From IMG/VR virus record IMGVR_UViG_3300006919_000037: DNA of 64,000 bases; one strand, given 5' to 3'. The stretch comes from a virus. Lineage: Duplodnaviria; Heunggongvirae; Uroviricota; Caudoviricetes. The notes under the pieces were generated by a model. That model had not been told where the DNA came from. It did no database searches and worked only from the letters and a program-made list of their open reading frames with translations. The first letter of the stretch is position 1. Each line of letters opens with the position of its first letter. Shown here piece by piece: positions 1 through 64,000 of this stretch. A program made the position numbers and the translations under genes.

Positions 1-181
1 ATGGCTTGAATGGTACAATACCATCATCCAGTGTCACAATCTTGACATAGCTCTCAATGAAATATATCGAATCATCGTGACATTTTCGGTATTCGTCTTT
101 TTCTGCTTGGGTATAGGCATAGACAGTCCCGGCTCTCAGAAGATTGGGGTTGCCTTGATACCCTTCGTCTCTAACTACCAT
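1..181 (-). CDS. gp17: Terminase large subunit, N-terminal fragment (runs off window edge)
   Basis: Manual translation from ATG at 181: MVVRDEGYQGNPNLLRAG...YFIESYVKIVTLDDGIVPF, the typical T4-like gp17 N-terminus; overlaps the gp16 stop. Confidence 0.85.
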   Translation of the reverse strand, partial: MVVRDEGYQGNPNLLRAGTVYAYTQAEKDEYRKCHDDSIYFIESYVKIVTLDDGIVPFKP

Positions 182-650
182 CTTCCTCTGCTTCCTCATT
201 TTTTATCTGTTTGAGGTAATCGGCAGGAGTTCCAATGAAGACGGCTTTCTCAACATTCATGGATGAACCAGCATCAGCCTTCTGTTTGGTTGGCCCCTGT
301 TTCGAATCCATTATCTCTCTCTTCTTGATGTGTAAGTCCATCTTGTCGAGTTCAGCCTTTGTCGTCACCTTGAAGAGTTTGGAGAAGGCATCTATAGACT
401 CAGGTGTGTCCGTGCCCATGGCAATGTCTGCTGATCTTTGCAGCACATCCAACCCAAGCATCGTGATGTTTTTCAGATTTTTCCGTGCTTCTTCAAAATC
501 GTCTTCAGCCATCTTGTTATCCACGGGTGGATTTTTGATGTCTGTGATTTCGGTTGGCTTCTTTACGGCAATATCGAACCCTGAAGTTTTCTCTAACACT
601 TCATGGTAATCGATATCCAACACTTCTGAAAGTCCTTGATGTTTGCTCAT
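171..650 (-). CDS. gp16: Terminase small subunit
   Basis: DFEEARKNL helix, C-terminal VFIGTPADYLKQIK motif, position between gp15 and gp17. Confidence 0.75.
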   Translation of the reverse strand: MSKHQGLSEVLDIDYHEVLEKTSGFDIAVKKPTEITDIKNPPVDNKMAEDDFEEARKNLKNITMLGLDVLQRSADIAMGTDTPESIDAFSKLFKVTTKAELDKMDLHIKKREIMDSKQGPTKQKADAGSSMNVEKAVFIGTPADYLKQIKNEEAEEDGS

Positions 651-1658
651 TTAGTCTAATGTCTCCGGATATTCTATGTACGTTTCTGTATATCCAAAAT
701 CGTCTGTTGGTTCAGCATCGATTGGATCAGGAGTGATCTTGATAGATGCAAGTTTCAATGGTGAGGCATCAAAACTGGCAATGCTGTATGCCGAATTGCT
801 TTCCGTCCCACGGATAGTTTGACCAACTATGAACTGACCCTGTGCACCACCGATCCGGATGTATGCATTGTTTGCATCAAAGGCCACCACAATACCGGCT
901 GCATTTGATGTCTGGACAGATGGTCCCTGATACACAGTCTCTTCAATTTTGAAGGTCCCGTTGTTACCATTATTTAGGTTAAGTCTGACAATTGCCCCAG
1001 ATTGTAGTGATGGGTCCAGATATGTGTTGGCAAAGACAGTCCGGATTATGCCCGTGTTGGCCACCGGTCCATAGAACCATGCCTTCATTGTAAACTGTAG
1101 TGTCCACTGGACAACCCGGAAGGTTTCGGTATCACCTTCGTAATCAACAGTCTTCTGGACAGAATCCAGAATTACCGGTGTGTCCATGGTGAACCCCATG
1201 TCATTTATGGGGATTGCCGGTATGGTGAATTCGGGTGTGAAGGTTGGCAATATCTGCTCTACGATTTGATCTGCATCCATTGTTGTACGGCCAAACACAC
1301 TCACTTCAAACGTGATGTCGTATGGCACACCGTCATATTGGGTTCTCAAGGTTGAACCCGTGTTGGCAGATGAATTACGGATGAGTGGATTCCTCTTTCT
1401 CATACCATCATACGTGTATGAAATATCCTGAAAGGCAATCATGGGTAGTGTCATCTGGCCGGGGTTTGTCAGATGCTGGTCGGCATTAAGCCTCTCAAAA
1501 TACTTTTCCTTCGGCCCGTAACGAACCGGCACCTTGATACGTTCAATCTCAGTCCCGGTCTCACTGGTCTCACGGTGAATCCATATATTGTTGAACATGG
1601 TTCCAATGGCCATGATGTATTTTCGGGTGAGTTTGTGGTAAAAGTGTCCTTGTAGCAT
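651..1658 (-). CDS. gp15: Tail sheath stabiliser / tail completion protein
   Basis: HFYHKLTRKYIMAIGTMFNNI, IKVPVRYGPKEKY and QILPTFTPEF motifs. Confidence 0.9.
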   Translation of the reverse strand: MLQGHFYHKLTRKYIMAIGTMFNNIWIHRETSETGTEIERIKVPVRYGPKEKYFERLNADQHLTNPGQMTLPMIAFQDISYTYDGMRKRNPLIRNSSANTGSTLRTQYDGVPYDITFEVSVFGRTTMDADQIVEQILPTFTPEFTIPAIPINDMGFTMDTPVILDSVQKTVDYEGDTETFRVVQWTLQFTMKAWFYGPVANTGIIRTVFANTYLDPSLQSGAIVRLNLNNGNNGTFKIEETVYQGPSVQTSNAAGIVVAFDANNAYIRIGGAQGQFIVGQTIRGTESNSAYSIASFDASPLKLASIKITPDPIDAEPTDDFGYTETYIEYPETLD

Positions 1659-2536
1659 TATATTGTCCCGAATGGATTGGTTTCAGTCTTATCAAGATTG
1701 GTGTTGGCACCAACTTCCATATATTCATTATCACTGACTGTGTAGTCCATATGATCCTGTCTATCATCGTATGAGTCCAGCACCCAGTCTGTTCCGGATG
1801 TTTCCCCGATAACATTGGCACCGGCCATGAACAGACCCTTGATATCAATAATATCAATGACGTTGTTTGCCGGGAACACATCACTGATCTGTGCAGATGC
1901 TGTTGATACAGTGAGGTTGGCTCCCTGATAAACAGTTTCACCGATCTGGAAGTTCCCCACACCGGCTGTGTCGAGATTTAGTCTTATGACGTATGACATA
2001 TCATTTTCGATCTGATCGATAATATCGATTCCTGTGTCAAATTCCTCATGGGAGAAGATGTACTTCTCAACTCTGATTTCGTAGATCATGGCTTCACGTC
2101 TACCAAGCTGGAAATATTCGTTTTCATGCTGGACAAACTTGATTTCAAATATGGAGTTCATGACCGGCACCCAAATGAGGTCACCTTCCCGTGGTCTTGG
2201 TAAAACGGTCTCTGGTATGTACTTTCTGAAAGTCCGTCTGGGAACAACAAGGTTGGTTGCTTCGTTGACCTGAAGTCCGAATTTGGTAAAGAAGTCTTCA
2301 CCAGAGGTCCAGCTTTCAACAGATGCAATATACATCTCCATCTGGTAATAGGTTTCGAATTTAGACGTTGGGTCTTCACCAAACACAAGGTCTACGGCTT
2401 CCTCAGTGTCCCTGACAAGGTAATATACATCCTCACCATATATCTGGGTCACTTCAACCATGAGGTCTTCCATGAGACGTTGCTCATTGGTTACTGCTGC
2501 TGATCCGTTATTCCGGAAATAGTGATTCGTTGCCAT
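1658..2536 (-). CDS. gp14: Neck protein
   Basis: EQRLMEDLMVE, YGEDVYYL, RPREGDLIW, FYQLG-like motifs; synteny 13-14-15. Confidence 0.85.
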   Translation of the reverse strand: MATNHYFRNNGSAAVTNEQRLMEDLMVEVTQIYGEDVYYLVRDTEEAVDLVFGEDPTSKFETYYQMEMYIASVESWTSGEDFFTKFGLQVNEATNLVVPRRTFRKYIPETVLPRPREGDLIWVPVMNSIFEIKFVQHENEYFQLGRREAMIYEIRVEKYIFSHEEFDTGIDIIDQIENDMSYVIRLNLDTAGVGNFQIGETVYQGANLTVSTASAQISDVFPANNVIDIIDIKGLFMAGANVIGETSGTDWVLDSYDDRQDHMDYTVSDNEYMEVGANTNLDKTETNPFGTI

Positions 2537-2539
2537 GGG

Positions 2540-12200: not shown

Positions 12201-12215
12201 TACGATATCTACCAT
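9201..12215 (-). CDS. Large virion structural protein (DUF4815/VrlC-like, C-terminal half) with inserted Hint domain
   Basis: IPYMRSIPVDF, DPTAQQFF, GVFLTGVDLYF, SPVYL, YSMFKSQN motifs. Confidence 0.75.
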   Translation of the reverse strand: MVDIVSRVGDVISNDTVSSTSQDGNRITVTQTSTVDRDGGSILTDVNYIPYMRSIPVDFAGYKLRPVRQVHFYFDDKNVSHFIQRPNVIELDNRVALKDIPSGQREKVQINSGNASIFVNETAIDSQNTRVYINHVEGTANPIVSGNVVTGLTSGLIGNVVSYLHQSGISGSGSNVNNIILSNDADNTTDDYYTGNVITLMSGESSNIVAYNAASRIANVSPAFGSVVANSIYSIGDTRNSWSSNNRQSHYTTEKGLVCGTMWLPDPSANADYKFFTGDRMFRILDNGANDLNDYTTRADYRFTTHGLEIDMTQIVNRTVTTNVATTTVRVDPPRTSNPPRTSNPSNGNGAACCFTGETLVTMSDGSYKRIDEINIGDRVLDPAGGYNCVLGVEIPKLGNRMLWAINKGEPFVTDEHPMMVAGEGWSCFNPDSWANQHIINGESVTRAIRIGDKLVTENGEVEITSIEMYPDLDSLLVYNLMLDGSHTYYANGYLAHNKGGDPTAQQFFISADTYPEGVFLTGVDLYFKNKDAILPVEVQIRPMVNGVPSSYEILPNATRVLEPEDINISDSPNVANSDTATTFIMPSPVYLMPGKDYCFVVLTDSFDYDFFVAEMGETILGSNRVVSRQPYVYSMFKSQNALTYTAIQSETVMFQLRKAVFDSSGSLSFNEQKLNSYNSPGESNTVFDLFQVHSDSAELPGTSITYEYKATSNANAAFDGAYTQFQPDKDTEVPVRKVVFGPDIDTVGYEMKMSLVTENTDISPIVWKNRQNLIPVENIINNMGIENTSISIAAVGSGYTAANTSLAFTGPTGSGANGYITASGGEITDVIMDATGLGYFDNVTCAITSSDGSGGSILVNSEEGKSGGLALARQISKPVSLADGFEAGDLRTRITVSKPPSSNVQVYYKVLNALDGDTLDDKNWLKMAQKTSIYKTSKNLEKIELEFTPNLTSNNIVYTSGSATYDTFNQYQIKIVLSSSGTGPRDLPYVHDAITTAYPADEF
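10722..11156 (-). other. Hint / bacterial intein-like domain (145 aa)
   Basis: CFTGETLV (block A), IDEINIGDRV, VTDEHP (block B), VYNL...HTYYANGYLAHN (blocks F/G); +1 residue is Lys. Confidence 0.85.
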
Positions 12216-15200
12216 TATCTTCTTCTTCTTCTGGTTGTTGTTCTACTTCTTGACCTTGATTGGCTATCTCCACCAAGGATGTCATTGATGGCATCTTCAG
12301 CTTGTCTCTGGCTATCAACTTCAATAGTGTTAAATTCTTCATTATTCTCGAAAGTTGTATTGATCACGGTTGGTGCATTGTTTGTTGACTTCCAGATATC
12401 GGATTCTGGGAGCATCATCACTTCACCTTCATAATCAGCAAACAGAAACTCTGCAACGGCAGTGAACTTTGTGGCTGAATTCTGTGCTATCATCACTTCT
12501 TCGGTGAAGTTAAGCAGGATTTTCTCATCAAATACCTTGACAGAAGATACAGAAGAGTCATCCACATCCAGTCTTATTGCTGAATTGTTTGCCTTCGGCT
12601 GCAACCAACCCTGCTTGTAATTCATTGCACACTGGTAATCGAACCTGTCAGAAGCACCCAGTGAGTGCCCGTTGAAGTTGTCGGCCAATATACCATATTT
12701 AGTTCTCTCTAGGCCATCCACATCGGTTACAATGATGTCAAGAGCATTCTTTTCCAGAGTATTCAGTGACACATAGTATTCAACATTTTTCAGTCTCTTA
12801 TCAATTAGACCAATATCTCTCATCGTATAACGTCTGTTATCAATATACTTTACGGCAACGTTTGATGGATAAGCTGTGTATGGTGACACACCAAGTGAAT
12901 AAAGCACCATTGAAGATGTTGGCTGTAATGGGTTCTGTGGAAATTTGGCTGGAGTACCTTCAATTCTTGTTAGAGATTTGTTTTCGGTCAATACGATCAG
13001 GTCTCTACGTCCAAGGTAATACCGATAATCGGTTTGGAAATCAGTTGTAGATGATGGCATCCTGATGGTTGAGGATGTGAATGTGTAGTTTGGTGATGTG
13101 TTGGCAGCATTTTTCCGGACTGGTCTAAAATCGATACAGTCTCTCAGGAACAGCTTTTCACCATTGACTGGGGTGTAGGTGGGTATTATGGCATACCCGG
13201 TCCCTATGGATACTCCCTCTTCCGTTATATCGGTATCCAGTGATGGATATGAGTCTACGGAGAAATAACCACTGTCTGTTGTTGAGGTGAAGTACCTTGC
13301 ACAAACAATGAGTGGGCCAGCCGGTGCAGCAAATCCCGGTTTCAGGAATATGGATGCATGGTCATAGTGTGTATCTCTTTGGCCGGGGTCCAGTTCAAAT
13401 CTGTTTGTGACATCAGTATAACCGGTCAGGTCTGCCCCACCGGCTGGAATGGCAGCACCAGCAAGATCATAAATTTTCTGGATAGATATAACATCAGATA
13501 TGAACAACGATTCTCTCGTACCGGGTGTTCTGGATGGACTTTCGATTGTCACCTGACCAGTTGTCAGATAGATGTTCGTTGTTGAGCCTGTTGTGTTGAC
13601 AAATGTATTTGATGTGGCTTCTGATGCAAATGTCTGTGTGTTGGCTTTCACCAATGACTTTACACGTGCAGTTGCTGAAGCACCGTCGATTTCCATTTTG
13701 GCCAAAACGGTTGCAGTGAATGTATCACCACCACCACCGGCTGTATCAAATGTAACCTGTTCAGGATCACCAGCCACGGAAGTTGTGACCTTGATCTGTT
13801 CACCGTTAGCACGTGCAGAGCCTTGATCGTTCTCCACAATGACAAGGAAATTGTCTGTGATTGTGGATGCTACGTTGGATGAAGATGTTGCACCTATAAA
13901 TTGTTCATCGGTTCCGGCTGTGATTGCAGCAGAAGCCCCGTCTGTAAACTGTACACCAGAATATTTCTTACGGAATGTGTATGCTTGCAGTGCCAATGAT
14001 CCTTCAGCTACATACTTCTCAGGGAATGGGAAGATAAGCTTACGGAGTGATGGTTCTGTGATCTGTGTAGAACCGTTAGCCAAACCATTGTCTTTGTTGA
14101 GGGTGGTTATGTTACAATTGGCATTTGAACTAGCACCAGTTGTATAGCTTGAATGCTTTATGAATGAGTTTGCATTGGCAAAGCTACCTGCTGAGAATTC
14201 AGGAGAGAAGATATAAAATTCATGCTTACGTGCAGTCACATCCGTGTCACCGGAGAAGAATTCAATATCTCTGAGTCTGGCTGTACCAATTTTTGTCAGT
14301 GCATATTGTGATGTGTTTGAGAAGTCAACAGCACCATATTGGGCACTGTGAATATCCACAAGCTCTTGGGTTGTTGGATCAAACAGTCCTTCAAGGGCAT
14401 CTACGATCACGTAGTTACCATAATTCAGGTTCAGATCGTATGCAGCTACATTGGCTTTTGTTCTGGCACGTGGGATTTCAATGCTGTTATCAGAAATTGT
14501 CTCATATTCATATCCACGAATATATGCCTTACCGGGTGATATTACAGCTAACACGTTGTTTTGACTGTCTGTTTCTGACGTGTCGAGACGAATTCCAAAC
14601 TCATTTACAGTGTATGATCCAGACTCATCATATGTTCTTCGTGCAAAAACTTCTTCAATCTCTGAATATTTCGGATAGACCACCTTCGATTTGATCTTAC
14701 CATTTTCCATTCTGGCAATTTCGATAAACGATGTATCATCTTCAGATGAGAGGTCACGTGTGGATAGGTTCAATTCCACCTTGTATCGTGCAGCACCGGG
14801 TGCTTGGTAGTTGGATGATTCAATTGCAGGGTCTCTGAGTGATGTATCAGAGTCAACCGTTACGATTTCATCATCAAACTCAAGACCGATTCTTACGTTG
14901 GCTTGTGCATGGTGTTTTGTCAGAATGATAGACTGCTTCGGCACCTTGATGTGATAACCGTTATAGAAATATATTGAGTCATAGATGAAAGCCATGGACC
15001 CATTTGAGTACACATTGGATGTTGGCACCACGTTGGCATAGATTTCTTCTGAATCAACCTTGATCGTATCACCAGCTACAAACTCATCACCAGTCAGGAA
15101 TCTAAGCTGTAAGCATGGTGGTTCAGTGTTTGAGCTTTCAGCCGTATTGACAACACGAGCAATAACCATGTTGTTTGCATCTGCATACCGAATTGTCTTG

Positions 15201-15508
15201 TTGAGGAAATTGGCAGCTACAATGTTCGTATTGGCATATGTAGATGCAAGATTCATAGTCTTGATATCGGATACAGACATATCCCCACCAACAACAGATG
15301 ATCCCTGTTCGAAAAGATGCAAAGACAGACGTTCAATCTGGTTCTGGAGTATTGTCTGGAGTTGGGTTACTTCACGGGCCTGAACAGCATAACCCGGCTG
15401 GGCAAGAATCTTGTGAAAATTCTTACTCTCATCAAAATCATCATAGAACGGTCTAACTGTTGTTGAACTTGCTACGATTTTTGTGTTTGCTACGTTTGCT
15501 CTAGCCAT
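12215..15508 (-). CDS. Large virion structural protein (DUF4815/VrlC-like, N-terminal half)
   Basis: PFYDDFDESKNFHKIL..PGYAVQAREVTQLQTILQNQI, APGAARYK, RYTMRDIG, LEYYVSL-type motifs. Confidence 0.8.
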   Translation of the reverse strand: MARANVANTKIVASSTTVRPFYDDFDESKNFHKILAQPGYAVQAREVTQLQTILQNQIERLSLHLFEQGSSVVGGDMSVSDIKTMNLASTYANTNIVAANFLNKTIRYADANNMVIARVVNTAESSNTEPPCLQLRFLTGDEFVAGDTIKVDSEEIYANVVPTSNVYSNGSMAFIYDSIYFYNGYHIKVPKQSIILTKHHAQANVRIGLEFDDEIVTVDSDTSLRDPAIESSNYQAPGAARYKVELNLSTRDLSSEDDTSFIEIARMENGKIKSKVVYPKYSEIEEVFARRTYDESGSYTVNEFGIRLDTSETDSQNNVLAVISPGKAYIRGYEYETISDNSIEIPRARTKANVAAYDLNLNYGNYVIVDALEGLFDPTTQELVDIHSAQYGAVDFSNTSQYALTKIGTARLRDIEFFSGDTDVTARKHEFYIFSPEFSAGSFANANSFIKHSSYTTGASSNANCNITTLNKDNGLANGSTQITEPSLRKLIFPFPEKYVAEGSLALQAYTFRKKYSGVQFTDGASAAITAGTDEQFIGATSSSNVASTITDNFLVIVENDQGSARANGEQIKVTTSVAGDPEQVTFDTAGGGGDTFTATVLAKMEIDGASATARVKSLVKANTQTFASEATSNTFVNTTGSTTNIYLTTGQVTIESPSRTPGTRESLFISDVISIQKIYDLAGAAIPAGGADLTGYTDVTNRFELDPGQRDTHYDHASIFLKPGFAAPAGPLIVCARYFTSTTDSGYFSVDSYPSLDTDITEEGVSIGTGYAIIPTYTPVNGEKLFLRDCIDFRPVRKNAANTSPNYTFTSSTIRMPSSTTDFQTDYRYYLGRRDLIVLTENKSLTRIEGTPAKFPQNPLQPTSSMVLYSLGVSPYTAYPSNVAVKYIDNRRYTMRDIGLIDKRLKNVEYYVSLNTLEKNALDIIVTDVDGLERTKYGILADNFNGHSLGASDRFDYQCAMNYKQGWLQPKANNSAIRLDVDDSSVSSVKVFDEKILLNFTEEVMIAQNSATKFTAVAEFLFADYEGEVMMLPESDIWKSTNNAPTVINTTFENNEEFNTIEVDSQRQAEDAINDILGGDSQSRSRSRTTTRRRRR

Positions 15509-15517
15509 TTGATGTCC

Positions 15518-18976: not shown

Positions 18977-21073
18977 TTAGATATTTTCTGCCAACATTTC
19001 TATTGTGATCGATTTTGGATCATTGACATCGATATCAATAATATTGTTACGAACTGTCCGGACGGTTTCCTCATCAGGTTGGATGTTGAACGTTATGATG
19101 TTGGTTGAATACTGGATGTTATCCGTAACAGCCAACGGAAGAACTTCAGAAAATGTTACAACCCCGGTGTCAAACCGGATTGTTCCAGCATTTTCATTGA
19201 TAATCTCTTTTTCACCATTCTCTTTGTAGTAGAATGTCCGTAGGACCCCCGTATCACCCCCCAGAACCCCGGTAGCAGTTGCTCCGGACCCATCACCCCC
19301 ACCTGTAATAGAAACGGTCACACGGGAATAATTTGAACCCCTTTCATTCAGGGTTATGGATTCAACCTTCCTGTTCACGACAACAGCCGTAGCAGTGGCC
19401 CCGGAACCGTCACCGGAGATGGTTACTGTTGGAATTTCCGTATAGTCTTGTCCAGTATCAACAACAGTGATTGAGTCAATACCCGTAAAACTATCCGGTG
19501 TTACCTCATAAAAGACCTTTCTCTCAACACCAGCCAAATCAGTGACTGTGAATGATGGATATGAGTATGCCTGATCAGGGAATGACAATTTATCCAATGC
19601 CTGATAAAACTGGATTTCATATGTCAGGGTTTCATCAAGAGTGAATTCGACACGTCTTTGTAGATATATGGTTATCTCTGATGATATGATCGAAGCCTCA
19701 GAATCTGCTATCAGACGGTGGAGTGCAGATTCCCTGAACACGGATTCAAAAGTTTTCAGTTCACTATCCCTGTAATCGATAATAGTCTGCCTGACAAGCT
19801 GACTCAATTCGTTACTGGTCAGTGTTGTCTTCTTTGGATCATAACTTACATGGACGTTCAATAGCAAATAGGTGTATATCGGATCAACAATCTCAGGGAT
19901 AACTGTCATGATTGACCGGTTGGCAATAATCTCGTTCTTGATTCTATCTTTCTCAACAGCAGTTATCTCATAATTGTCTGTTGGTTTCAGGGAGAGGAAA
20001 ACTTTACCATACACGGGTGGAACGTTTTCAGCACCGGACCAGACTGATACAGCATCCAGATTTGGATAATCTCTCAGCATAAGAAGCTGGAAATCTTCAT
20101 CAGTCACGGCCCTGTTCTGTGATGTGTAATGGATAGGTGCACGTTTACGGATTTCTTCGATTGTTTCACGTGAAGCACCAGATGCTGACTTTGTTATTGT
20201 GGATACGGCAATGTTTGCATTGAAGCCGTCTACTGCATCTGTGGCCACAAATCTATCCAGAGAATTACCAGCCTCTCCAGCAACATCAAGATATGTCACA
20301 ATTGCAACAGACCCATTAGCTGGCTTTTTACCTATATAATCATCACCGAAATAGATGGTATATTGCCCATTGGCATCTGAATTTTCTTCAATCCAGAAAA
20401 CCCTTGAGTTGGCTGTCACTTCTGTGATATCTTGTGCCTGTGTGTATATGGACTTGGCAGTATTGGTTGTGGACTGCTGGACACTCACTGTGATTGTTGA
20501 GGTGTCTACGTTTGATGACTGGATGGTGAAACGTCTATCTGGGTTTCCAACCACATCCATGAGATACTGTTTTGTTACAACTTCACCCTGTTTCAACCAT
20601 ACGTTTGAAAACTCAAATGATCCTGATGTGACATTCTTTGTGGCTGTGTTTGAGTGGATTGTGACAAACTGGTAATTGGTCCCATCCTTGGCAGATGATA
20701 GGAACTTGGTGAACTTTGAAAGAGTTGCTGTGTTTGAGGCTTGATCTTCAGCACCACCGGGTGTGACTGCAATGTCTACAAGAGCCAAGGCCCCAACTTG
20801 TGAGCCGGGTACATAGTTCATATGTTTGGCATGTGAAAGGATTGAAGCCCGGACCTGTGCAGTGTCACCAAATGCCTCATTGGCTATCATGTTGCCATAA
20901 AAGCCCATATAGTGGGTGTTATATGCCAAAATATCCAACAGGACAGACATACCGGCACCTTCAAAATCATAGTCTGTAAATTCAGCCTGACCTGCCAAAT
21001 AGTCTTTCAGATTTTCCCTGATCTGATCATAATCCAGTTCAGTGATTCTTAGATTTGTATTTGAGGTTGTCAT
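18977..21073 (-). CDS. gp6: Baseplate wedge subunit
   Basis: LDYDQIRENLKDYL..Q.EFTDYDFEGAGMSVLLDILAYNTHY; QNRAVT; PPVYGKVF. Confidence 0.92.
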   Translation of the reverse strand: MTTSNTNLRITELDYDQIRENLKDYLAGQAEFTDYDFEGAGMSVLLDILAYNTHYMGFYGNMIANEAFGDTAQVRASILSHAKHMNYVPGSQVGALALVDIAVTPGGAEDQASNTATLSKFTKFLSSAKDGTNYQFVTIHSNTATKNVTSGSFEFSNVWLKQGEVVTKQYLMDVVGNPDRRFTIQSSNVDTSTITVSVQQSTTNTAKSIYTQAQDITEVTANSRVFWIEENSDANGQYTIYFGDDYIGKKPANGSVAIVTYLDVAGEAGNSLDRFVATDAVDGFNANIAVSTITKSASGASRETIEEIRKRAPIHYTSQNRAVTDEDFQLLMLRDYPNLDAVSVWSGAENVPPVYGKVFLSLKPTDNYEITAVEKDRIKNEIIANRSIMTVIPEIVDPIYTYLLLNVHVSYDPKKTTLTSNELSQLVRQTIIDYRDSELKTFESVFRESALHRLIADSEASIISSEITIYLQRRVEFTLDETLTYEIQFYQALDKLSFPDQAYSYPSFTVTDLAGVERKVFYEVTPDSFTGIDSITVVDTGQDYTEIPTVTISGDGSGATATAVVVNRKVESITLNERGSNYSRVTVSITGGGDGSGATATGVLGGDTGVLRTFYYKENGEKEIINENAGTIRFDTGVVTFSEVLPLAVTDNIQYSTNIITFNIQPDEETVRTVRNNIIDIDVNDPKSITIEMLAENI

Positions 21074-22645: not shown

Positions 22646-24178
22646 TTATCCCATATCCAGACCAGATGCATAGCCATACCACGTGGTGCCACCATCTGAT
22701 GTGATGAATTCTAAGGTGTCAACCCCGGATGTTGTTAGTGTTGGTGCAGTAGCACCGGCCCAATCAACGGATGCTGGCCAGTTAACTGTTTGTGATCCAC
22801 CATTTGTTAATATCAATGTAAAGCTTGATGATAGACCAGAAACAGCAGCATTGGAGAATGTGAATGTTGTTGCTGATGTATCAACGGTTCCGGTCACAAT
22901 CGTACCAAGTTTTAAATCAATATCCTGTGTACCACCACCAATTGAGCCGATTGCATTTCTTTTTTCAATAAAATTATTTGCCTGTACCCCGGTATCGTCT
23001 ACCAATAATTGAGTTATTCCATTAATCTTTACCCCAACATCACCACCGGCTTCATCAGTTTGTAGATTCAATCTACCCGTTCCATGATGTTCTATACGGG
23101 ATTCAGCATTGGCACCAGTGCTGAATCTGATAATTCTTAAAGCATAGTCTGTATAAGTATCATCCCCATGAAAATCTATGTATGCAAGTCGATCACCAGA
23201 ACCCCCACTATTGATTTCAATATTGGTATCTCCAATAGTGGTATTGTATTGTAACATTGAACTGTTTGCCCGACCATAAGCAGATTGTGCTGTATCCAGA
23301 GCAATATTGGCCTGATCAAAGGCAGCAGATGGAAGAGCTACTGATCCATTGGCAGTGTCAAAGGCAGCAACAGCAGCAGCATAGGCAGCATTGGCTGTCC
23401 CATATGTTGACACAACAAACACGTTTGCTGAGTTAGCCGTATCATAAGCCCCAGAAGCAGCTATCTGTGCAGAATTGGCTGTTCCGAAAGCAGATATAGC
23501 AGCAGCATTGGCACCGTTGGCTGTATCATAAGCCCCACCAGCAGCCGTATTAGCAGATGCAGCCGTAATACTGGCAGCATTTGCAGTGTCAAAGGCAGCA
23601 GCACCTGTAATAGTAGCACCGTTAGCCGTATCATATGCACCGGAAGCCGTTATAACAGCCCCGTTGGCAGTACCATAAGCATTTATAGCAGCAATGGATG
23701 CATCATTGGCAGTAGTGTTGGCTGTTGTGGCCGTAGCAGATGCAACATTGGCAGTATCTGAAGCAGTTATAGCAGCAGCAGATGCAGTGTTGGCCTGATC
23801 ATATGATCCAGAAGCCAAAGCTCCAGCAGCCACGGCATTGACATTTGCTGTGTTTGCCAATGTTGAGGCATCATTGGCAGTTGTGTATGCAGTGTTTGCT
23901 TGGGTGTATGCAGCATTAGCTTGATCAAATGCCGGTCCTAGTCCACCACTGGCTGTGTTGGCCTGATCATAAGCAGATTGTGCTGTGGCTAATGCTGTGT
24001 TAGACAGATCATATATGACATACACAGGTGAGTTGGCTACATTAGCCCACTCAAGGTTTCCAACGACAAAATGGGCAGTGTTGCCATTCCACTGTGCTGG
24101 ACCAACCTTATCGGTTTCACCGGTATCAGCAACATTCGAATAGAACGTGTGTTGTATTAATAGTCCTGTATTGGCCAT
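22646..24178 (-). CDS. Tail fibre protein with long Ala-rich heptad stalk
   Basis: Many AYDTAN/AFDQAN repeats, YIDFHGD...DYALRI motif, C-terminal VNWPASVDWAG..PTLT..GVD domain. Confidence 0.75.
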   Translation of the reverse strand: MANTGLLIQHTFYSNVADTGETDKVGPAQWNGNTAHFVVGNLEWANVANSPVYVIYDLSNTALATAQSAYDQANTASGGLGPAFDQANAAYTQANTAYTTANDASTLANTANVNAVAAGALASGSYDQANTASAAAITASDTANVASATATTANTTANDASIAAINAYGTANGAVITASGAYDTANGATITGAAAFDTANAASITAASANTAAGGAYDTANGANAAAISAFGTANSAQIAASGAYDTANSANVFVVSTYGTANAAYAAAVAAFDTANGSVALPSAAFDQANIALDTAQSAYGRANSSMLQYNTTIGDTNIEINSGGSGDRLAYIDFHGDDTYTDYALRIIRFSTGANAESRIEHHGTGRLNLQTDEAGGDVGVKINGITQLLVDDTGVQANNFIEKRNAIGSIGGGTQDIDLKLGTIVTGTVDTSATTFTFSNAAVSGLSSSFTLILTNGGSQTVNWPASVDWAGATAPTLTTSGVDTLEFITSDGGTTWYGYASGLDMG

Positions 24179-30641: not shown

Positions 30642-30673
30642 TTTTCTGATTTCTCTTTGGTTTCTAGTTTACT

Positions 30674-30681
30674 TATAAATA
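30674..30681 (+). promoter_or_regulatory. Late promoter TATAAATA
   Basis: Exact T4 late consensus just upstream of gp4. Confidence 0.7.
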
Positions 30682-30686
30682 TACAC

Positions 30687-31151
30687 ATGAAAAGAAAAGG
30701 TTATAGGAACATCCAGAAGGGGAAATTCATTCCACGGCACCCCGAAAAGTATAAGGGCAACCCAAAGGGGATCATATATCGATCTTCTCTGGAGTTGGAG
30801 TTCTGCAATTATTTAGATAACAACCCACATGTTCTGGAATGGGCATCAGAAGAATTCTGTATACCATATTTTGACCCAGCCAAGAACAAACCAAGAAGGT
30901 ATTTTCCAGATTTCTGGATGAAGGCCAAAAAGGGTGACAAGATCAAGACTATGGTTGTCGAAATAAAGCCATATTCCCAGACAAAACCACCAAACACCAA
31001 GGGTAGGAAGAAAAAGGAAACTCTCATCAAGGAAGCTGTCACGTATTCAACAAATGAAGCCAAATGGGATGCAGCCGAACAGTTTTGTAAGACTAAAGGG
31101 TGGGAATTCGTGATTGTTACTGAAAAAGAATTGAGAGGGTCTAATAAATAG
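30687..31151 (+). CDS. gp4: Head completion nuclease
   Basis: GKFIPRHPEKYKGNP..IIYRSSLE, WASEE, RRYFPDF, VEIKP, NEAKW; start placed at ATG 30687. Confidence 0.9.
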   Translation: MKRKGYRNIQKGKFIPRHPEKYKGNPKGIIYRSSLELEFCNYLDNNPHVLEWASEEFCIPYFDPAKNKPRRYFPDFWMKAKKGDKIKTMVVEIKPYSQTKPPNTKGRKKKETLIKEAVTYSTNEAKWDAAEQFCKTKGWEFVIVTEKELRGSNK

Positions 31152-38447: not shown

Positions 38448-38654
38448 AATTAGTATCCTGCTACTTTAACACTACCACGGCCTCAAGCCAATTGGGCCAA
38501 TCAAACTACGTTGGACTTCCGGGTTTAGTGCCCAGTGTGCTTTCAGGATGTTCATGATCCTTAGTTCTTGTAACACCTTCTCAATTACCGGTAACCGGTC
38601 GTCTCTCGAAGGAACCATATTGGTGCATGACCCCCAACATGGTGGAATTCAAAT

Positions 38655-38985
38655 TAGTTGGTGGATTCTGTTGCTAGGTTCCACCGGACCCCCGTACTCA
38701 GGATTCTAACCACAAAGGGTTAGGCAGCAAGAGCCATAGGTGCAAAGTTATCGTTTGCATTTGTTTTCTAGCCAGTCGGCCAACCAGTTAACTCCAGTTA
38801 CTCATTACTCACCTAATCGATCCTGTTTCATCCCCATCAAGAGCACATCAGTCATTTTACAAAACTGTCTAACATCGAGAGTGCTTTGTTCTACAGCCAA
38901 CACTTCAATGTGCTCATGGTGGAGATGTGGGGTACTGCCCCCCAGTCTTAAGTGCTTTTTGTTTCCTTCAACGTTAACAAGACTA
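38655..38985 (-). ncRNA. ssrA: Circularly permuted (two-piece) tmRNA
   Basis: Acceptor piece ending GAC-TGGGG-GGCAGTA-CCCCA-CATCTCC-A-CCA (3' end 38917), spacer, then coding piece starting GGGGATGAAACAGGATCGA (38835) with G3-U70; tag ANDNFAPMALAA* at 38758-38720; outer ends approximate. Confidence 0.92.
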
Positions 38986-39010
38986 TTTATGGCACTTCTC
39001 TGAACGAATG

Positions 39011-45785: not shown

Positions 45786-46469
45786 TCATCCTGACATTTC
45801 AGTTTTTGTAATGATGTAATCCTTCACCAACCCGGACCTTACAATGTCTTCCTTGGTGAATTCAACATACTCAAAATTCTTCATCCTCTTAGTTATATTT
45901 AGAAACTGTTTCACCCCAGACAACTCTTCTGACTTTTTTAAGTCAGTTTGCCTGAAATCACCAGAGAATATGATTCTGGATGTGTCACCCATCCGGGTTA
46001 TGACAGTATCCAGTTCAGAGAATGTCATGTTCTGGATTTCATCAACAATCACTATGGCCCTTTCGAATGTCATACCTCTCAGATATGACGTGGTGGTAAA
46101 CTCCACCATCTTCTTCATCTTCAGGACTTCATAGCCATCACCTCTCCCAAAGAGATCATCAGCAATCTGTTTATACGGCTCTTCAAATATCCGTGATTTC
46201 TCACGTATTGAACCGGGTAGAAATCCCATGTCCCGGCTGGCCACAACACTTCTCACGATGATCACCTTATCAAACTCAAAGGATTTCTTGGTTATCAACT
46301 CTTCCAATGCCAAATACAACGATAGATATGTCTTTCCCGTTCCTGCAAAGCCGTGTAGGACCACATTAAGACCTGAACGGTATGATTGCATAGCTCTCTT
46401 TTGATTGTCGTTCATGGGGCTTATATGGGACATTTCAAAATGCTGCTTGGGTTTGTTTCTTTTGGCCAT
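45786..46469 (-). CDS. phoH: PhoH-family ATPase
   Basis: GFAGTGKT, MGFLPG, YLRGMTF, IVDEIQN, IIFSGDFRQTDL, DIVRSGLV; start reset to MAKRNK. Confidence 0.92.
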   Translation of the reverse strand: MAKRNKPKQHFEMSHISPMNDNQKRAMQSYRSGLNVVLHGFAGTGKTYLSLYLALEELITKKSFEFDKVIIVRSVVASRDMGFLPGSIREKSRIFEEPYKQIADDLFGRGDGYEVLKMKKMVEFTTTSYLRGMTFERAIVIVDEIQNMTFSELDTVITRMGDTSRIIFSGDFRQTDLKKSEELSGVKQFLNITKRMKNFEYVEFTKEDIVRSGLVKDYIITKTEMSG

Positions 46470-46504
46470 GGTTGGTGTTTCTTTCCTTTGGTTGGCTATA
46501 AACG

Positions 46505-46536
46505 AAAAAAGGCCACCCACAATAGTGGATGACCTT
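46505..46536 (-). terminator. Rho-independent terminator
   Basis: AAGGTCATCCAC-TATT-GTGGGTGGCCTT followed by TTTT. Confidence 0.7.
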
Positions 46537-51359: not shown

Positions 51360-51389
51360 TGTCTTCTTTCATGTGATTTTCTTATCACC

Positions 51390-51418
51390 ATTATATAGGA
51401 CCACATTTCAAAAGTCAA
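51390..51418 (-). promoter_or_regulatory. Strong sigma70-type early promoter
   Basis: TTGACT-17-TATAAT. Confidence 0.8.
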
Positions 51419-51499
51419 TAAACCATAGGTTGTAAAACTACAACCATAGGTTGGTAGACTCATTGAAAAAAGTGTTCTATAATAAAGACTTAGAGTAAA

Positions 51500-51598
51500 T
51501 TATTTCTTGGAGAATTTTCTCTTAGCTCTTGCACGTCTCTTCTTGGAGCCGATCTTTCTTCGGCCCTTTGGTGGTCTGTTCTTATGTGGATGTGGCAA
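51500..51598 (-). CDS. 32-aa highly basic peptide (TTG start)
   Basis: MPHPHKNRPPKGRRKIGSKKRRARAKRKFSKK; GGAG SD 10 nt upstream. Confidence 0.55.
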   Translation of the reverse strand: MPHPHKNRPPKGRRKIGSKKRRARAKRKFSKK

Positions 51599-51611
51599 TG
51601 TTCATAATCTC

Positions 51612-51896
51612 CTATGGCCAGTAATTTTCTTGGAACTTGAATAGTTTTTCGAGAGAATCATATCCACCAATCAGATGGATGTCTCCATTACCCCATTTTG
51701 AAAAAATCATGGGCATGGTAGGCTTCTCAATACCCTTCCACTGTAGAAAGGATTTCCAAGCACCCACATCACCGTTAATGGATATGGTAGTGTACTTGAT
51801 ACCTTTCTCATCCAACAATGCCTTGGCCTTGTCACACCACGAGCAATCAGATTTTGTCAACACCAACAGAGGTTCAATAAACTCAGGTTTAATCAT
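51612..51896 (-). CDS. Glutaredoxin
   Basis: CSWC active site, TMPMIF, IGGYDSL. Confidence 0.85.
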   Translation of the reverse strand: MIKPEFIEPLLVLTKSDCSWCDKAKALLDEKGIKYTTISINGDVGAWKSFLQWKGIEKPTMPMIFSKWGNGDIHLIGGYDSLEKLFKFQENYWP

Positions 51897-52114
51897 CCGT
51901 ACTTCTTCCATTTTACCCATTCCAGAATTTCTTCAGCCCGGTCAGGTGAGAGGTGTTCTTTACCGTATGCATACAACCGTTTGTATGTCTCTGCACCGTG
52001 CCTATACCATGACATGTCTTCAGACATTTCATACATGAAATCATGCTTCATGCACATGTCATAGTAGGTTTTTTCTTCCTCAGTGAGGGTATCTTCATAT
52101 TTCAAATTTGTCAT
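51893..52114 (-). CDS. Hypothetical protein
   Basis: HDFMYEMSED..WYRHG; upstream TTGACA at 52153. Confidence 0.65.
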   Translation of the reverse strand: MTNLKYEDTLTEEEKTYYDMCMKHDFMYEMSEDMSWYRHGAETYKRLYAYGKEHLSPDRAEEILEWVKWKKYG

Positions 52115-52161
52115 AATAGAACACCATATACATGAGTTGGTGGGCTGTGTCAACCTTTAAT

Positions 52162-52326
52162 TTACATATTGACACGATTTATGAAAGCTTTGGCATGGGC
52201 TTCCGACATGAATTTGTTTTCGACGGCATGTTCGTAATCTCTACGGTATTCGGTTCTCATCATACGAGTCATTGGACCTTCACCGAATAGGTCAAAGCCA
52301 TTGAAAAAGTTTAGCAAAGCAGACAT
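52162..52326 (-). CDS. 54-aa hypothetical protein (below track cutoff)
   Basis: MSALLNFFNGFDLFGEGPMTRMMRTEY...; fills the gap between ORFs. Confidence 0.5.
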   Translation of the reverse strand: MSALLNFFNGFDLFGEGPMTRMMRTEYRRDYEHAVENKFMSEAHAKAFINRVNM

Positions 52327-52409
52327 TGGAATTCTCCACAAAAAAAGCCATGGATGATTCCACGACTTCTCCTGTATTTATTGCTGCACTGCACAAAACT
52401 CAATCCACC

Positions 52410-52610
52410 TTATTGCATATCTGTTATGCTTTCCACACCAAGATCACTTAAAATATCTTCCAATTCTTTTGCAAAATATTCCAAATCTTCTACACTGTAT
52501 TTGTGACCATGTTCTACCAATAAAGCCTTAATGATAGTGGCTTGTATCCTTAAGTCTTTTTTGAGTAATTCTTCTTGTGATTCTTTTTGTGATTCTTCAA
52601 TCTTCGACAT
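52410..52610 (-). CDS. Small hypothetical protein
   Basis: Start reset to MSKIEES. Confidence 0.55.
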   Translation of the reverse strand: MSKIEESQKESQEELLKKDLRIQATIIKALLVEHGHKYSVEDLEYFAKELEDILSDLGVESITDMQ

Positions 52611-52884
52611 TTTCAGATTTCCTATACTTATGTTTCCGTGCCCAATCATGCAACATTCTTGGAACTTTATCACAACCTCTAGCCATTTTATGATTACTGA
52701 AACCATCAAGCAGCCGGATAAATTTATGATACTCTATATCAGGATCACCCATACTGAAAAACATTAACCACTCAGTCTTCCCCATTTCCCCCCATTCAGA
52801 GCTTCTTGTATAGTTCAATCCTTCAATGAAATTGACAACATCACTGGTCCTGATATAATAGGGAATTTGTTTATTTTTCGTCAT
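52597..52884 (-). CDS. Hypothetical protein
   Basis: ORF in a coupled chain. Confidence 0.6.
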   Translation of the reverse strand: MTKNKQIPYYIRTSDVVNFIEGLNYTRSSEWGEMGKTEWLMFFSMGDPDIEYHKFIRLLDGFSNHKMARGCDKVPRMLHDWARKHKYRKSENVED

Positions 52885-53107
52885 TTCCCATAATCCACTT
52901 CATGACATGATCAATATGGTGAGGGACCTTATATTCCCTATTGTTGGACATACGAATCGTGCACCAGTTATTTCCCCCACTGTCTGTGTATGGGTCTAAT
53001 ACTTCAGACACAAATTCAACATTGATATATACATCATACAACCATCTCATATGGTCTGGTGATGCAGCATCAGCATGTTTAATTAATATAAATTTACTCT
53101 TTGACAT
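52871..53107 (-). CDS. Hypothetical protein
   Basis: ORF in a coupled chain. Confidence 0.6.
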   Translation of the reverse strand: MSKSKFILIKHADAASPDHMRWLYDVYINVEFVSEVLDPYTDSGGNNWCTIRMSNNREYKVPHHIDHVMKWIMGNDEK

Positions 53108-53504
53108 GGCTCTTGCTAACTTTCACATGCATCCAATCATTATAATACTCTTCTTTGAGAATTGCATCACGTTTGAATATCTCACTGGCTTCATAATAAT
53201 TTGCCGTACCCTTCGTCTTACATAGGTGAAGTATTTCCCTATGGAAAGCACCCTTCCCAAGTCTGGCAACCTCTTCCTGTATCGTCTTGTTCGATCCGTA
53301 ATAGTCTTGCCAATCAGACTCAGCTTTGTATTTCTTCTTCTTCAGCTTCACTTGCCGGGTCTTGCTCACATAGAAGAATTTCCGACCTACGTATTTCTTA
53401 TGGGTGACGTTATTGGTGATCAGGTAGACAAATCCATAATAGCCTTCGGGGATTTCTGTCAGGGGTTCTTTGTTGTAAATCCAAGGTGTGGTAGTCATAT
53501 TCAT
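53094..53504 (-). CDS. Stand-alone GIY-YIG nuclease (endonuclease II/DenA-like)
   Basis: GFVYLITN...KKYVGRK, YYGS, REIL, YYEASEI; CATAAATA late promoter at 53529-53522. Confidence 0.75.
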   Translation of the reverse strand: MNMTTTPWIYNKEPLTEIPEGYYGFVYLITNNVTHKKYVGRKFFYVSKTRQVKLKKKKYKAESDWQDYYGSNKTIQEEVARLGKGAFHREILHLCKTKGTANYYEASEIFKRDAILKEEYYNDWMHVKVSKSHVKE

Positions 53505-53537
53505 ACTCCATTATCTGGGAGTATTTATGTGACCTTC

Positions 53538-58013: not shown

Positions 58014-58673
58014 TTAATTGTTTGAAGTGAGTCCTGATATAGACGGAAAATGTTCACATATACCATTCCAGCATTGTTCTGCAATCTCTCTATGTTCTTT
58101 CTGGGTGCCGTTACCCATACGTAGAGCACAATAATGAATCCATGATCTGAGAGTCCCCGACATGTACATCGTGGATGGTGTCATTCCTTCAGGCAGTACG
58201 GCTCTTGCCTGTTCCTTGGCCACACCATTATCCAGTGCCCATTCATAGGCTTCGATAATACGTTCACTCACAAGGTTTTGATATTCCTGCCACTGGTGTT
58301 CCAGAAATTCATCATCCACATCAACAGAATTCTGTCTGTTCTTTGGGTCTTGGAGTCTGGCTTCACGGGTCACCATGTCGGCAATATTGATCCGTGCATA
58401 TCTTTGTGAGAATTCCTGAAACGAAAACGACCTGTGACGTAGGATTTGTCTCCCAATATCACGAGTCGTTTTGATTTCAATAGCCATATGGACCATCTCA
58501 AAAGGGGACCAGTGCTTGTTGTTGATCAGATATGCCAACAGCTTGTCTGCTGTGTCATTGTTCAATTGATTTGATGGGTTTGATACCCGTGCACAATATG
58601 CCACAAACTCTTCTGCCGTATCAACACCGTCTATGTTCACCGGTTGGGTGACTGCCACTACTTTCACGTTCAT
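58014..58673 (-). CDS. thyX: Flavin-dependent thymidylate synthase
   Basis: RHRSFSFQEFSQRY motif, HWSPFEM, EQARAVLP, TQKEHR. Confidence 0.95.
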   Translation of the reverse strand: MNVKVVAVTQPVNIDGVDTAEEFVAYCARVSNPSNQLNNDTADKLLAYLINNKHWSPFEMVHMAIEIKTTRDIGRQILRHRSFSFQEFSQRYARINIADMVTREARLQDPKNRQNSVDVDDEFLEHQWQEYQNLVSERIIEAYEWALDNGVAKEQARAVLPEGMTPSTMYMSGTLRSWIHYCALRMGNGTQKEHREIAEQCWNGICEHFPSISGLTSNN

Positions 58674-62646: not shown

Positions 62647-62652
62647 CTGTTT

Positions 62653-63408
62653 TTACCTGTAACAAGCTTGGAAATGCATCGGATCATAGTTTCTTTCCAT
62701 GCCAAGTGAATACCAGCCTTCATCTCTGAAAGCCTGTACAAACTTTGCACAATCCGGATGAGAGAAGTGTGCATCTTTCCACTTGGTTCTCAGGCCGTTC
62801 CTAGCTGGGTCCATGTCGATTGCAATACCCCATGCATGTGTGGACCAACGGTTACCACCCCTAATCTTACGGACGTTCAGGCACCCACCAAACAGATCGA
62901 AGCCATGTTCAGCCCGTTCTTCTGGTGTGTAGTCGGATGCTATCTGTTCAAATATACCCTGAAGGCTCTTGGAGACCTTCTCATGGCATGTTATCTTACT
63001 TAGCACCACCTTTGTGTCCCAAGCCAGTTTGAGCTTGTATGGCATCTGTATCTGTGTCTGGTTTTGTCCCACCCGGCCATAGAATGACCGTAGGTCAGAC
63101 ATACGTTCTTTGGGCCATACTGAATATGGCTTGGTCTCAATGGTTGGGTTGTGAACATTATCATCTGGTGAAGTTCTCAGAGACTCTTCAAACTTGGCCT
63201 TGGTCTTCGATCCAACCTTGCCGTCTGTTACCAGACCAGACATTCTCTGGAACATGATGACAGATTGTTTCGACATAGGACCATAGAGTCCATCAATATT
63301 TCCCTGATAGAGTCCAAGATCGGCCATGTGTTTTTGATATCGTTTGTCTATTCTGGTCATTTTACGAATCCAGCCTTCTCCATGTCTGATTTTTTGATTA
63401 CCAACCAT
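62653..63408 (-). CDS. Endolysin: peptidoglycan-binding domain + M15 peptidase
   Basis: IDGLYGPMS...FQRMSGLVTDGKVG; GGCLNVRKIRGG..WSTHAWGIAIDMD; DPMHFQ. Confidence 0.9.
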   Translation of the reverse strand: MVGNQKIRHGEGWIRKMTRIDKRYQKHMADLGLYQGNIDGLYGPMSKQSVIMFQRMSGLVTDGKVGSKTKAKFEESLRTSPDDNVHNPTIETKPYSVWPKERMSDLRSFYGRVGQNQTQIQMPYKLKLAWDTKVVLSKITCHEKVSKSLQGIFEQIASDYTPEERAEHGFDLFGGCLNVRKIRGGNRWSTHAWGIAIDMDPARNGLRTKWKDAHFSHPDCAKFVQAFRDEGWYSLGMERNYDPMHFQACYR

Positions 63409-63620
63409 TTACCATTGTTTAGTTCATATCCATACCCGGCAGATTTTTTTGGTCTGTCTTGGGTATCTGACCATGACTGTGCAGACCAAACGGCATCAGC
63501 TTTAGATTTATACCAACCTTCAATTTCCCAATCACCATTGGGTGATCTGATCAATACCCAGTTACCACTCTTTTGACCAAACGATAATGATTCACTCATA
63601 AACTCCCTAAACGTCTTCAT
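63357..63620 (-). CDS. Putative internal head protein
   Basis: Starts MKTFREFMSES (capsid-targeting-like). Confidence 0.6.
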   Translation of the reverse strand: MKTFREFMSESLSFGQKSGNWVLIRSPNGDWEIEGWYKSKADAVWSAQSWSDTQDRPKKSAGYGYELNNGKWLVIKKSDMEKAGFVK

Positions 63621-63967
63621 TACTTCTTGCCATACTTGATGTATGTCATAGCCCCGGTACGTTCATCCTGAACGATGATTGGTTCATCCCGGTTCTTGTA
63701 TGCATACTCACGGATAGCCTTGCCAGTATCACACTCACCCACATATGACTTCCAGTGCTTGTATTGCTTCTTGCCTTGTAGGCACTTGTGGTATGTGTCA
63801 CCGTTCACTTCAAAACAGGTCTTGCCAGCAAACTTCTTCTTCTTGACGAAAACCTCACCCGTGTCACCTGTACCGGGGACGGCTGGACCAGTTGCATTGG
63901 CTGGTGCATCTTCAGCCATTGCCTTATGCTTTTCCTTACGGGGAAGCCTCTTGTTCTTTAATGCCAC
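63620..63967 (-). CDS. Conserved T4-like hypothetical protein (start uncertain, near window edge)
   Basis: EDAPANATG, FAGKTCFEV, GKKQYKHW..YVG, IIVQDERTGAMTYIKY. Confidence 0.65.
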   Translation of the reverse strand: MALKNKRLPRKEKHKAMAEDAPANATGPAVPGTGDTGEVFVKKKKFAGKTCFEVNGDTYHKCLQGKKQYKHWKSYVGECDTGKAIREYAYKNRDEPIIVQDERTGAMTYIKYGKK

Positions 63968-64000
63968 GACTCTCTTACGGTACTTGGGTGTACGTAGGTC

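Follow-up and report, generated by a model that had tools for sequence, protein, structure and literature searches.

A T4-like phage genome without GCG or CGC: purifying selection on a three-base DNA word and the defence or weapon that may lie behind it

The DNA described here is a stretch of 64,000 bp, referred to throughout as the window, from the IMG/VR record IMGVR_UViG_3300006919_000037. The record is an uncultured T4-like myovirus whose genome forms a single contig of 161,858 bp with direct terminal repeats and a CheckV completeness of 100%. Core structural and replication genes of T4 are present in conserved order, among them those for the baseplate proteins gp6, gp8, gp25 and gp53, for gp2, gp32 and gp59, and for the clamp, clamp loader, RNase H, primase and ribonucleotide reductase. 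No near match at the DNA level was found among cultured phages, the best cultured matches being T4-like phages of Pelagibacter, Rhizobium, Vibrio and Pseudomonas with 28-30% protein identity. The subject of this report is a property of the DNA itself: the trinucleotide GCG and its complement CGC are missing from the window and from the entire genome. The features on which the argument draws are the following:

1..64000, no strand: the whole window, with no GCG or CGC on either strand and likewise no CCWGG, GGAGG/CCTCC, RGATCY, CTGCAG, GGTACC, CAGCTG or GCATGC (exact counts)
12215..15508, minus strand: gene for a DUF4815/VrlC-like virion protein, the second marker, used for codon-level comparison of orthologues (homologue searches)
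18977..21073, minus strand: gene for the gp6-like baseplate wedge protein, the phylogenetic marker (PHROG 219, E 1e-147)
22646..24178, minus strand: alanine-rich fibre-like open reading frame (ORF) with 106 alanine codons, namely 51 GCT, 29 GCC, 26 GCA and 0 GCG (codon count)
30657..31151, plus strand: gene for a TnsA-like PD-(D/E)XK endonuclease (Pfam PF08722, E 6e-24)
38629..39009, minus strand: permuted alpha-type transfer-messenger RNA (tmRNA) gene encoding the tag ANDNFAPMALAA, without GCG or CGC (ARAGORN; Rfam RF01849, 130 bits, E 4e-37)
58014..58673, minus strand: gene for the thymidylate synthase ThyX (Pfam PF02511, E 8e-43)

Exact counting gave zero GCG and zero CGC in the window, where a first-order Markov model predicts 221 and 249. 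The initial annotation, made by reading the letters alone, had claimed just this absence and an expectation of several hundred of each at a GC content put at about 43% by eye; the measured content is 42.4%. The whole genome is equally devoid of both words against some 1,200 (about 1,202) expected under the Markov model, and the Poisson probability of finding none is approximately 1e-522. Words containing CG are otherwise common, as the same annotation had stated: CG, CCGG, TCGA and ACGT occur 1512, 314, 132 and 198 times in the window and 3,919, 773, 371 and 508 times in the genome, with CCGG and TCGA over-represented at 1.33 and 1.39 of Markov expectation. In its nine permitted contexts (HCGD) CpG reaches 3919 against a zero-order expectation of 4469, a ratio of 0.88, so that the overall CpG deficit (0.53 of expectation) is almost entirely due to the missing GCG/CGC contexts. 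General CpG depletion, which the annotation had argued against, is thereby ruled out. Avoidance of GCGC and CGCG alone, which it had also discounted, would leave words of the AGCGA type in place; these are missing too, AGCG being absent genome-wide against 311 expected.

The way in which the word is removed from genes shows the hand of selection. According to the genome codon table none of the 2,780 alanine codons is GCG and none of the 2,095 arginine codons is CGC, and the alanine-rich fibre-like ORF, whose stalk had been singled out from the letters, conforms to the rule. Codon junctions are constrained in the same manner. Codons for phenylalanine, tyrosine, histidine, asparagine, aspartate and cysteine that precede alanine end in C in 0 of 551 cases, the C-ending forms making up 30-57% elsewhere; arginine following a G-ending codon is AGA or AGG in 280 of 280 cases; AGC, TGC and GGC never stand before a codon starting with G, nor TCG, CCG and ACG before one starting with C. 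When synonymous codons are redrawn in 60 runs under unchanged protein sequences and the codon usage of the genome itself, from which GCG and CGC codons have already dropped out, the null model predicts 1077 +/- 29 sites at codon junctions in coding DNA and never fewer than 1007, while uniform synonymous usage would give about 3,050 coding sites. Non-coding DNA is expected to hold approximately 130 sites and holds none; the 26 transfer RNA (tRNA) genes (1,958 nt, 52% GC) lack the 31 or so expected of them, and the tmRNA gene is free of the word, as had been claimed for its region. Dipeptide frequencies are normal and the alanine and arginine contents are the same as in relatives. Where normal relatives carry GCG or CGC at orthologous positions, the motif-free phages have GCA, GTG, GCT, GCC, GAG, TCT or ACG with the amino acids conserved, and any of the three bases may therefore change. 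The avoidance is frame-aware and synonymous, and amounts to selection on a DNA word that spares the proteins.

Neither GCG nor CGC occurs in genes of either orientation, and the target is therefore DNA rather than messenger RNA (mRNA). An RNA-level target, for example that of an mRNA interferase, was rejected as the simplest reading on this ground and because the words are lost from non-coding DNA as well; a cause in codon usage or tRNA supply was ruled out by the loss of out-of-frame and non-coding sites. Of all possible point substitutions in the genome, 26,858 of 485,574 (5.5%) would create a site, and so would 9,230 of the 97,601 synonymous ones (9.5%), so mutation supplies sites constantly. 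These figures also bear on explanations that do without selection: a sequencing or assembly artefact, misread base editing, synthetic design, or a mutational bias through methylation and deamination. Systematic errors at modified motifs do occur on some sequencing platforms. However, no single miscall or editing rule yields changes that follow the reading frame and always keep the protein (NNC to NNT before alanine, CGN to AGR after NNG, NGC to NGT before G); GTG and CAC show no excess (ratios 0.98 and 0.96), and independent JGI, ENA and IMG/VR assemblies of diverged relatives agree, which rules out sequencing artefact and base editing. Synthetic design is at odds with an environmental IMG/VR genome with terminal repeats, and mutational bias alone cannot hold some 27,000 possible site-creating substitutions at zero. 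Taken as a group, these explanations are extremely improbable. The absence is real, and it is held by strong purifying selection acting on the DNA itself.

Relatives were collected with the gp6-like baseplate protein from IMG/VR, JGI, ENA and Logan assemblies, following the comparison with related phages that the initial annotation had named as a check. In the gp6 tree the GCG-free phages form a clade with support of 100/98, in which the genome described here branches first, followed by a lineage termed L001-type and then by a sister pair, L037-type and L038-type. No site occurs in the 24.6 kb of L038-type, taken from an ENA assembly; L001-type, with 49% GC and represented by two contigs of a single JGI sample, has one site in 9.3 kb against approximately 112 expected; and a 1-kb fragment, L014, has none. 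The clade members lacking the word come from independent JGI, ENA and IMG/VR assemblies and share 64-74% protein identity; the source samples of the clade include JGI 3300071170 and 3300005826 and ENA ERZ28593557. Counts of GCG and CGC are normal in the sister clade (gp6 identity of 59-61%) and in every relative beyond it, and across 67 phage loci of at least 4 kb from outside the clade the ratio of observed to expected spans 0.57-1.33 (median 0.98). The absence is thus a heritable and uncommon trait that does not hinge on one assembly. A metagenome scan for further members of the clade returned only the 1-kb fragment; two scans of viral contigs with window proteins gave nothing useful, and a DUF4815 search returned only contigs already found. 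L038-type carries two insertions, a NUMOD3 homing-endonuclease-like gene between gp25 and gp6 (L038 5174-5782; L053 3868-4476) and Hint/intein-like matches within a 998-amino acid virion protein (L038 14579-17575; L053 13273-16269), and both are also without GCG and CGC.

The L037-type lineage departs from the rule in an instructive manner. It is nested within the motif-free clade as sister to L038-type, with 75% nucleotide identity in aligned parts, and its two contigs, from different genome regions, carry 195 sites in 59.4 kb. All 195 are flanked 5' by G or T. From sister-clade frequencies about 86 A-flanked and about 79 C-flanked sites (some 165 in total) would be expected in the first 38.8 kb alone, and none was found. 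Tolerance is graded by context: compared with the sister clade, GGCGC stands at 0.02, GGCGA at 0.2, TGCGC at 0.21 and the others at 0.4-1.1. The orthologous tmRNA of L037-type, which encodes the tag ANDNFAPMAVAA, contains TGCGCA. At 51 aligned sites where L037 has GCG, L038 has GTG (18), GCA (12), ACG (4) or others, mostly one transition away, which fits a recent regain of sites under a narrower constraint. By parsimony, the common ancestor would have been without any GCG, and L037-type would later have come under an MGCG/CGCK constraint that let KGCG return. The claim of selection against a three-base word, as first put forward, thus stands on codon context, persistence in at least three diverged lineages, RNA genes and the lack of any site in spite of the steady mutational supply, and is refined in that one nested lineage avoids the four-base word MGCG. 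L037-type also shows that sites, once allowed, accumulate on the timescale of sister-lineage divergence; for three lineages with deeper divergence to lack them altogether, strong purifying selection must still be at work.

The split of the word by its flank, MGCG being absolutely avoided and KGCG tolerated, raises the question whether GCG is read as one word at all. Several independent systems with 4-6-bp sites (AGCG/CGCT, CGCG, GCGC, GGCG/CGCC and TGCG/CGCA) could tile it between them, and L037-type would then have escaped those that read KGCG. The hosts appear to be rich in restriction systems, as more than 20 other motifs are avoided, and some of the avoided hexamers belong to degenerate families with GCG-containing members: GACGTC belongs to GRCGYC, the AcyI site, and CAGCTG to CMGCKG, the NspBII site. 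Such an arrangement would nevertheless need at least three to four systems that exactly tile all sixteen NGCGN contexts and stay together in three diverged lineages (the present genome, L001-type and L038-type) while the other motifs vary. We know of no restriction enzyme for the asymmetric 4-bp sites AGCG, GGCG or TGCG, and the graded contexts of L037-type look more like one reader with flank preferences; a change of flank between sister phages is easier to obtain by a shift in one reader's specificity than through several independent readers. A composite of this kind is, in our estimate, distinctly unlikely.

The other avoided motifs form a long list, with more than 15 classic restriction sites besides CCWGG and RGATCY. 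Genome-wide, the observed and expected counts are 0/275 for CCWGG, 0/143 for GGAGG, 1/119 for CTCGG, 2/60 for CGAGG, 0/237 for RGATCY, 0/59 for CAGCTG, 0/72 for CAGCTC, 0/20 for GAGCTC, 0/31 for GAGCCC, 0/39 for CTGCAG, 0/38 for GGTACC, 0/26 for GCATGC and 0/19 for GACGTC; AGTACT, AGGCCT, CCCGGG, GCCGGC and ACTAGT do not occur at all. Their distribution is uneven. Avoidance of CCWGG and SAGCTS is clade-wide, that of CTCGG and GGTACC is confined to this genome, and RGATCY and GGAGG are not avoided in L001-type. CCCGGG is found 12 times against approximately 3 expected in L038-type, 0 times against 19 in the present genome, and 0 times in L037-type. A patchwork of this sort among clade members is what differing restriction repertoires of hosts are expected to produce. 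Three observations may be added on individual motifs. The Shine-Dalgarno core GGAGG, and with it CCTCC, is absent from both strands, and in ribosome-binding regions its place is taken by AAGGA, GGAGA, AGGAG and the like. The SAGCTS members (CAGCTG, CAGCTC/GAGCTG and GAGCTC) together number 0 against about 150 expected, clade-wide, which suggests a restriction specificity for SAGCTS; we know of no characterised enzyme of that kind. Avoidance of CCWGG is patchy outside the clade, with 1 occurrence in 6.2 kb in the sister-clade phage L042 (ENA ERZ23486260) and 22 in 22 kb in the close sister L039. The Ochrobactrum phage vB_OspM_OC (L089, MT028491.1 91741-132265) has no CCWGG in 40.5 kb and encodes a protein of the NADAR family, which includes the antitoxins of DarTG1, a defence system based on the ADP-ribosylation of DNA.

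A short word that matters on either strand, and that varies at one flank between related systems, also brings to mind the protospacer adjacent motif (PAM) of CRISPR-Cas. If GCG were the PAM of the hosts' systems, and MGCG that of one host, a genome without PAMs would be neither sampled nor targeted, and the usual PAM length of 2-5 nt matches the size, the symmetry and the NGCG/MGCG difference seen here. PAM depletion in phages has reportedly been looked for in an earlier study, and such depletion as is reported is weak. The cost of one site would be small and indirect, which makes the purge of about 1,200 sites hard to explain; the accompanying avoided words are classic restriction sites and not PAMs, and we know of no CRISPR system with a GCG PAM. 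PAM depletion is accordingly a highly improbable cause.

How the phage might protect its own DNA can be judged from its gene content. Neither DNA methyltransferases (C5, N4/N6 or Dam type; PF00145, PF01555 and PF02086) nor ThyA/dCMP-hydroxymethylase (PF00303) or TGT/DpdA (PF01702) were detected in the CheckV-complete genome, and Pfam scans of approximately 90 of its ORFs revealed no modification enzymes, although novel ones beyond the reach of such scans are possible. ThyX, a deoxycytidine monophosphate (dCMP) deaminase encoded outside the window, and ribonucleotide reductase are present; the first two indicate what looks, from gene content, like an ordinary metabolism of deoxynucleoside triphosphates. 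The phage DNA is probably unmodified, with site avoidance as its main passive protection. Broad avoidance of restriction sites combined with the lack of detectable methyltransferase or modification genes tilts the odds towards a host defence.

The same scans yielded only three small nuclease genes, of the PDDEXK_5, TnsA-like and HNH families, and these bear on the opposite possibility, in which the clade itself encodes the reader of GCG. A short-site nuclease or nickase would cut the host DNA to pieces at GCG, shutting the host off and freeing nucleotides for reuse, and the phage would be recognised as self by the lack of the word; in L037-type the specificity of the enzyme would have narrowed to MGCG and the KGCG sites would have returned. 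Viruses are known to degrade host DNA with nucleases that read 2-4 bp (PMC7019647), and phage HNH nickases of 3-7-bp specificity exist (PMC3592412). Moreover, the GCG trait is as stable in the clade as core genes are while the other avoided motifs vary, and, with no phage methyltransferase, absence of the word would be the sole mark of self. The HNH protein (199 amino acids, genome 37460-38059), whose best match among solved structures is the small HNH nuclease 4H9D, is a candidate for a phage-encoded GCG nuclease. Its gene is syntenic (Band_7, glucosaminidase, HNH) in L037-type (L087 10001-10585) and L001-type, with 70% and 66% identity, and the closest homologues from elsewhere, in a search of 5.8 billion proteins, reach 52% and 46% identity. 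Since its divergence is similar to that of gp6, it behaves as a vertically inherited gene and not as a sporadic homing gene. Against this stands the wide distribution of the family in large myoviruses: the closest cultured carrier, the Ochrobactrum phage vB_OspM_OC mentioned above, has a homologue with 42% identity and yet normal GCG/CGC counts (536 against 564 expected). The PDDEXK_5 protein (genome 23273-23671) resembles the homing endonuclease I-Ssp6803I, and the TnsA-like gene does not track the trait, as it has orthologues in L037 and in the GCG-normal relatives L039 and L040. No sequence specificity is known for any of the three, and the abundant co-avoidance of classic restriction sites shows that host restriction already shapes these genomes. 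A phage-encoded weapon is, on this evidence, credible but rather unlikely.

Escape from a host defence that targets DNA through a three-base GCG core, agents acting on single-stranded DNA included, is the explanation that we prefer, at about an even chance. A clade without protective DNA modification would survive by deleting the words that are targeted by the sequence-directed DNA defences of its hosts. One such defence would read the three-base core GCG/CGC, or the four-base form MGCG/CGCK where the host of one sister lineage is concerned; it would act at every occurrence, so that each new site is costly, and sites would be lost from coding sequence through synonymous codons, from RNA genes through compensated changes and from spacers through substitutions. 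Conceivable agents are a nuclease of the restriction type together with its cognate methylase and a factor acting on single-stranded DNA, for instance a DarT-like modifier; either would select on both strands. That it is host-encoded and single and has a three-base core, as well as its biochemical nature, is what we infer from the pattern of absence.

Several points weigh against this explanation. A search for the host gave no usable link: a scan of prokaryote assemblies with gp6 gave no match, and a scan of 185,579 species genomes for the tmRNA tag gave as its sole match an unrelated alphaproteobacterial metagenome-assembled genome from the human gut with normal GCG. We know of no restriction enzyme or methyltransferase with GCG specificity, and any host that made such an enzyme would need to shield all the GCG sites of its own DNA. 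Among 482 prototype restriction enzymes the recognition site is shorter than 4 bp in CviJI/CviJI*, SetI and FaiI alone, and GCG is not the site of any of these (PMC5948728). Within the clade the avoidance is no less stable than the genes of the phage themselves, and a phage-intrinsic cause would account for this just as well. Since the word is split by its flank in the MGCG variant, more than one agent may be at work. Finally, no unrelated GCG-free phages turned up among 32 contigs with PDDEXK_5 homologues, all of which had normal counts, and a probe with the HNH gene recovered no viral contigs, although this survey was not exhaustive. When the two possible owners are taken together, we regard it as fairly probable that either bacteria or this phage clade possess an undescribed DNA-targeting system with the three-base core GCG/CGC and a natural MGCG variant, which tolerates no site in 162 kb.

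Some further features of the phage deserve mention. Its tmRNA is of the alphaproteobacterial type according to Rfam, and the metagenome-assembled genome matched by the tag scan encodes the tag ANDNFAPMAMAA (L086 953-991, CAKQBW010000004.1), one residue off the phage tag. Besides this alpha-type permuted tmRNA, ARAGORN called the 26 tRNA genes of the genome without any tRNA-Ser or tRNA-Tyr, and the single tRNA-Arg has the anticodon TCT. No psbA was found in the genome, and the phage is therefore not an obvious cyanophage. The family-B DNA polymerase, outside the window, is encoded by two adjoining, overlapping ORFs at genome positions 50859-52412 and 52409-53509 (L047:13448-15001 and 14998-16098), the first of 517 amino acids, in which the exonuclease domain is followed by the beginning of the polymerase domain, the second of 366 amino acids with the remainder. 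Three more genes were recognised in the window:

44188-45138, minus strand: trypsin-like protease with a PDZ domain (DegP/HtrA-like architecture)
45786-46520, minus strand: PhoH-like ATPase
62653-63408, minus strand: peptidoglycan-binding M15 peptidase

Motif avoidance in a phage genome records the sequences that are read by the defences of its hosts. The agent implied here would act about once per 130 bp of ordinary DNA, far more often than at classical restriction sites of 4-8 bp, and erasing its word forbids about 10% of synonymous mutations. If the proposed reading is correct, GCG would be a shorter fixed recognition word than any known so far for a prokaryotic nuclease of defence or counter-defence, and the genome the first known to be kept wholly free of a trinucleotide; a search of the literature found no description of a trinucleotide-free phage or genome, or of a GCG-specific enzyme. 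Identification of the agent would extend prokaryotic immunity, or the anti-host weaponry of phages, by a new class of specificity, and could yield an ultra-frequent cutter or nickase. The pair of sister phages with NGCG and MGCG constraints offers a ready comparison for mapping the determinant of specificity, and screens of viral metagenomes for absent k-mers can reveal defences that gene-centred searches miss.

Among known systems, the chloroviruses come closest to nucleases with words this short. Host DNA is degraded by their enzymes with 2-4-bp specificity, such as CviJI (RGCY), and by the nickases Nt.CviPII (CCD) and Nt.CviQXI (RAG); the restriction enzymes and Nt.CviPII are packaged in the virions, and the viruses protect their own DNA by methylation (PMC7019647). 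They are alike in that natural 2-4-bp nucleases are turned on the host chromosome with the virus's own DNA immune; they differ in being eukaryotic algal viruses with an adjoining cognate methyltransferase, whereas the present phage has no methyltransferase and no homologous gene pair was found. The HNH nicking endonucleases of phages and prophages, N.phiGamma and others, have 3-7-bp specificity (PMC3592412). They are small phage-encoded HNH proteins like the 199-amino acid protein of the clade, and very short specificity is a feature of nickases; unlike it, they adjoin terminase genes and serve packaging, the HNH gene of the clade lying among early genes. The CpG depletion of other viruses is matched by the low overall CpG (0.53), but here only GCG/CGC is lost, the other nine contexts stand at 0.88, and the lost sites bear no TG/CA signature. 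The closest parallel in strategy is restriction-site avoidance in unmodified phages (T7-like, Bacillus and Staphylococcus phages, among which phage K is the GATC-free example from Staphylococcus), where target words are likewise removed synonymously, no protective methylase is present and the avoided set varies among relatives. The companion words CCWGG, RGATCY, CTGCAG, GGTACC and GCATGC are textbook cases of it and have the architecture typical of restriction sites, 4-8 bp and usually palindromic, which neither GCG/CGC nor the degenerate, asymmetric MGCG has. What sets the present phage apart from this familiar strategy is a word that is 3 bp long, non-palindromic and totally removed from 162 kb, tRNA genes included.

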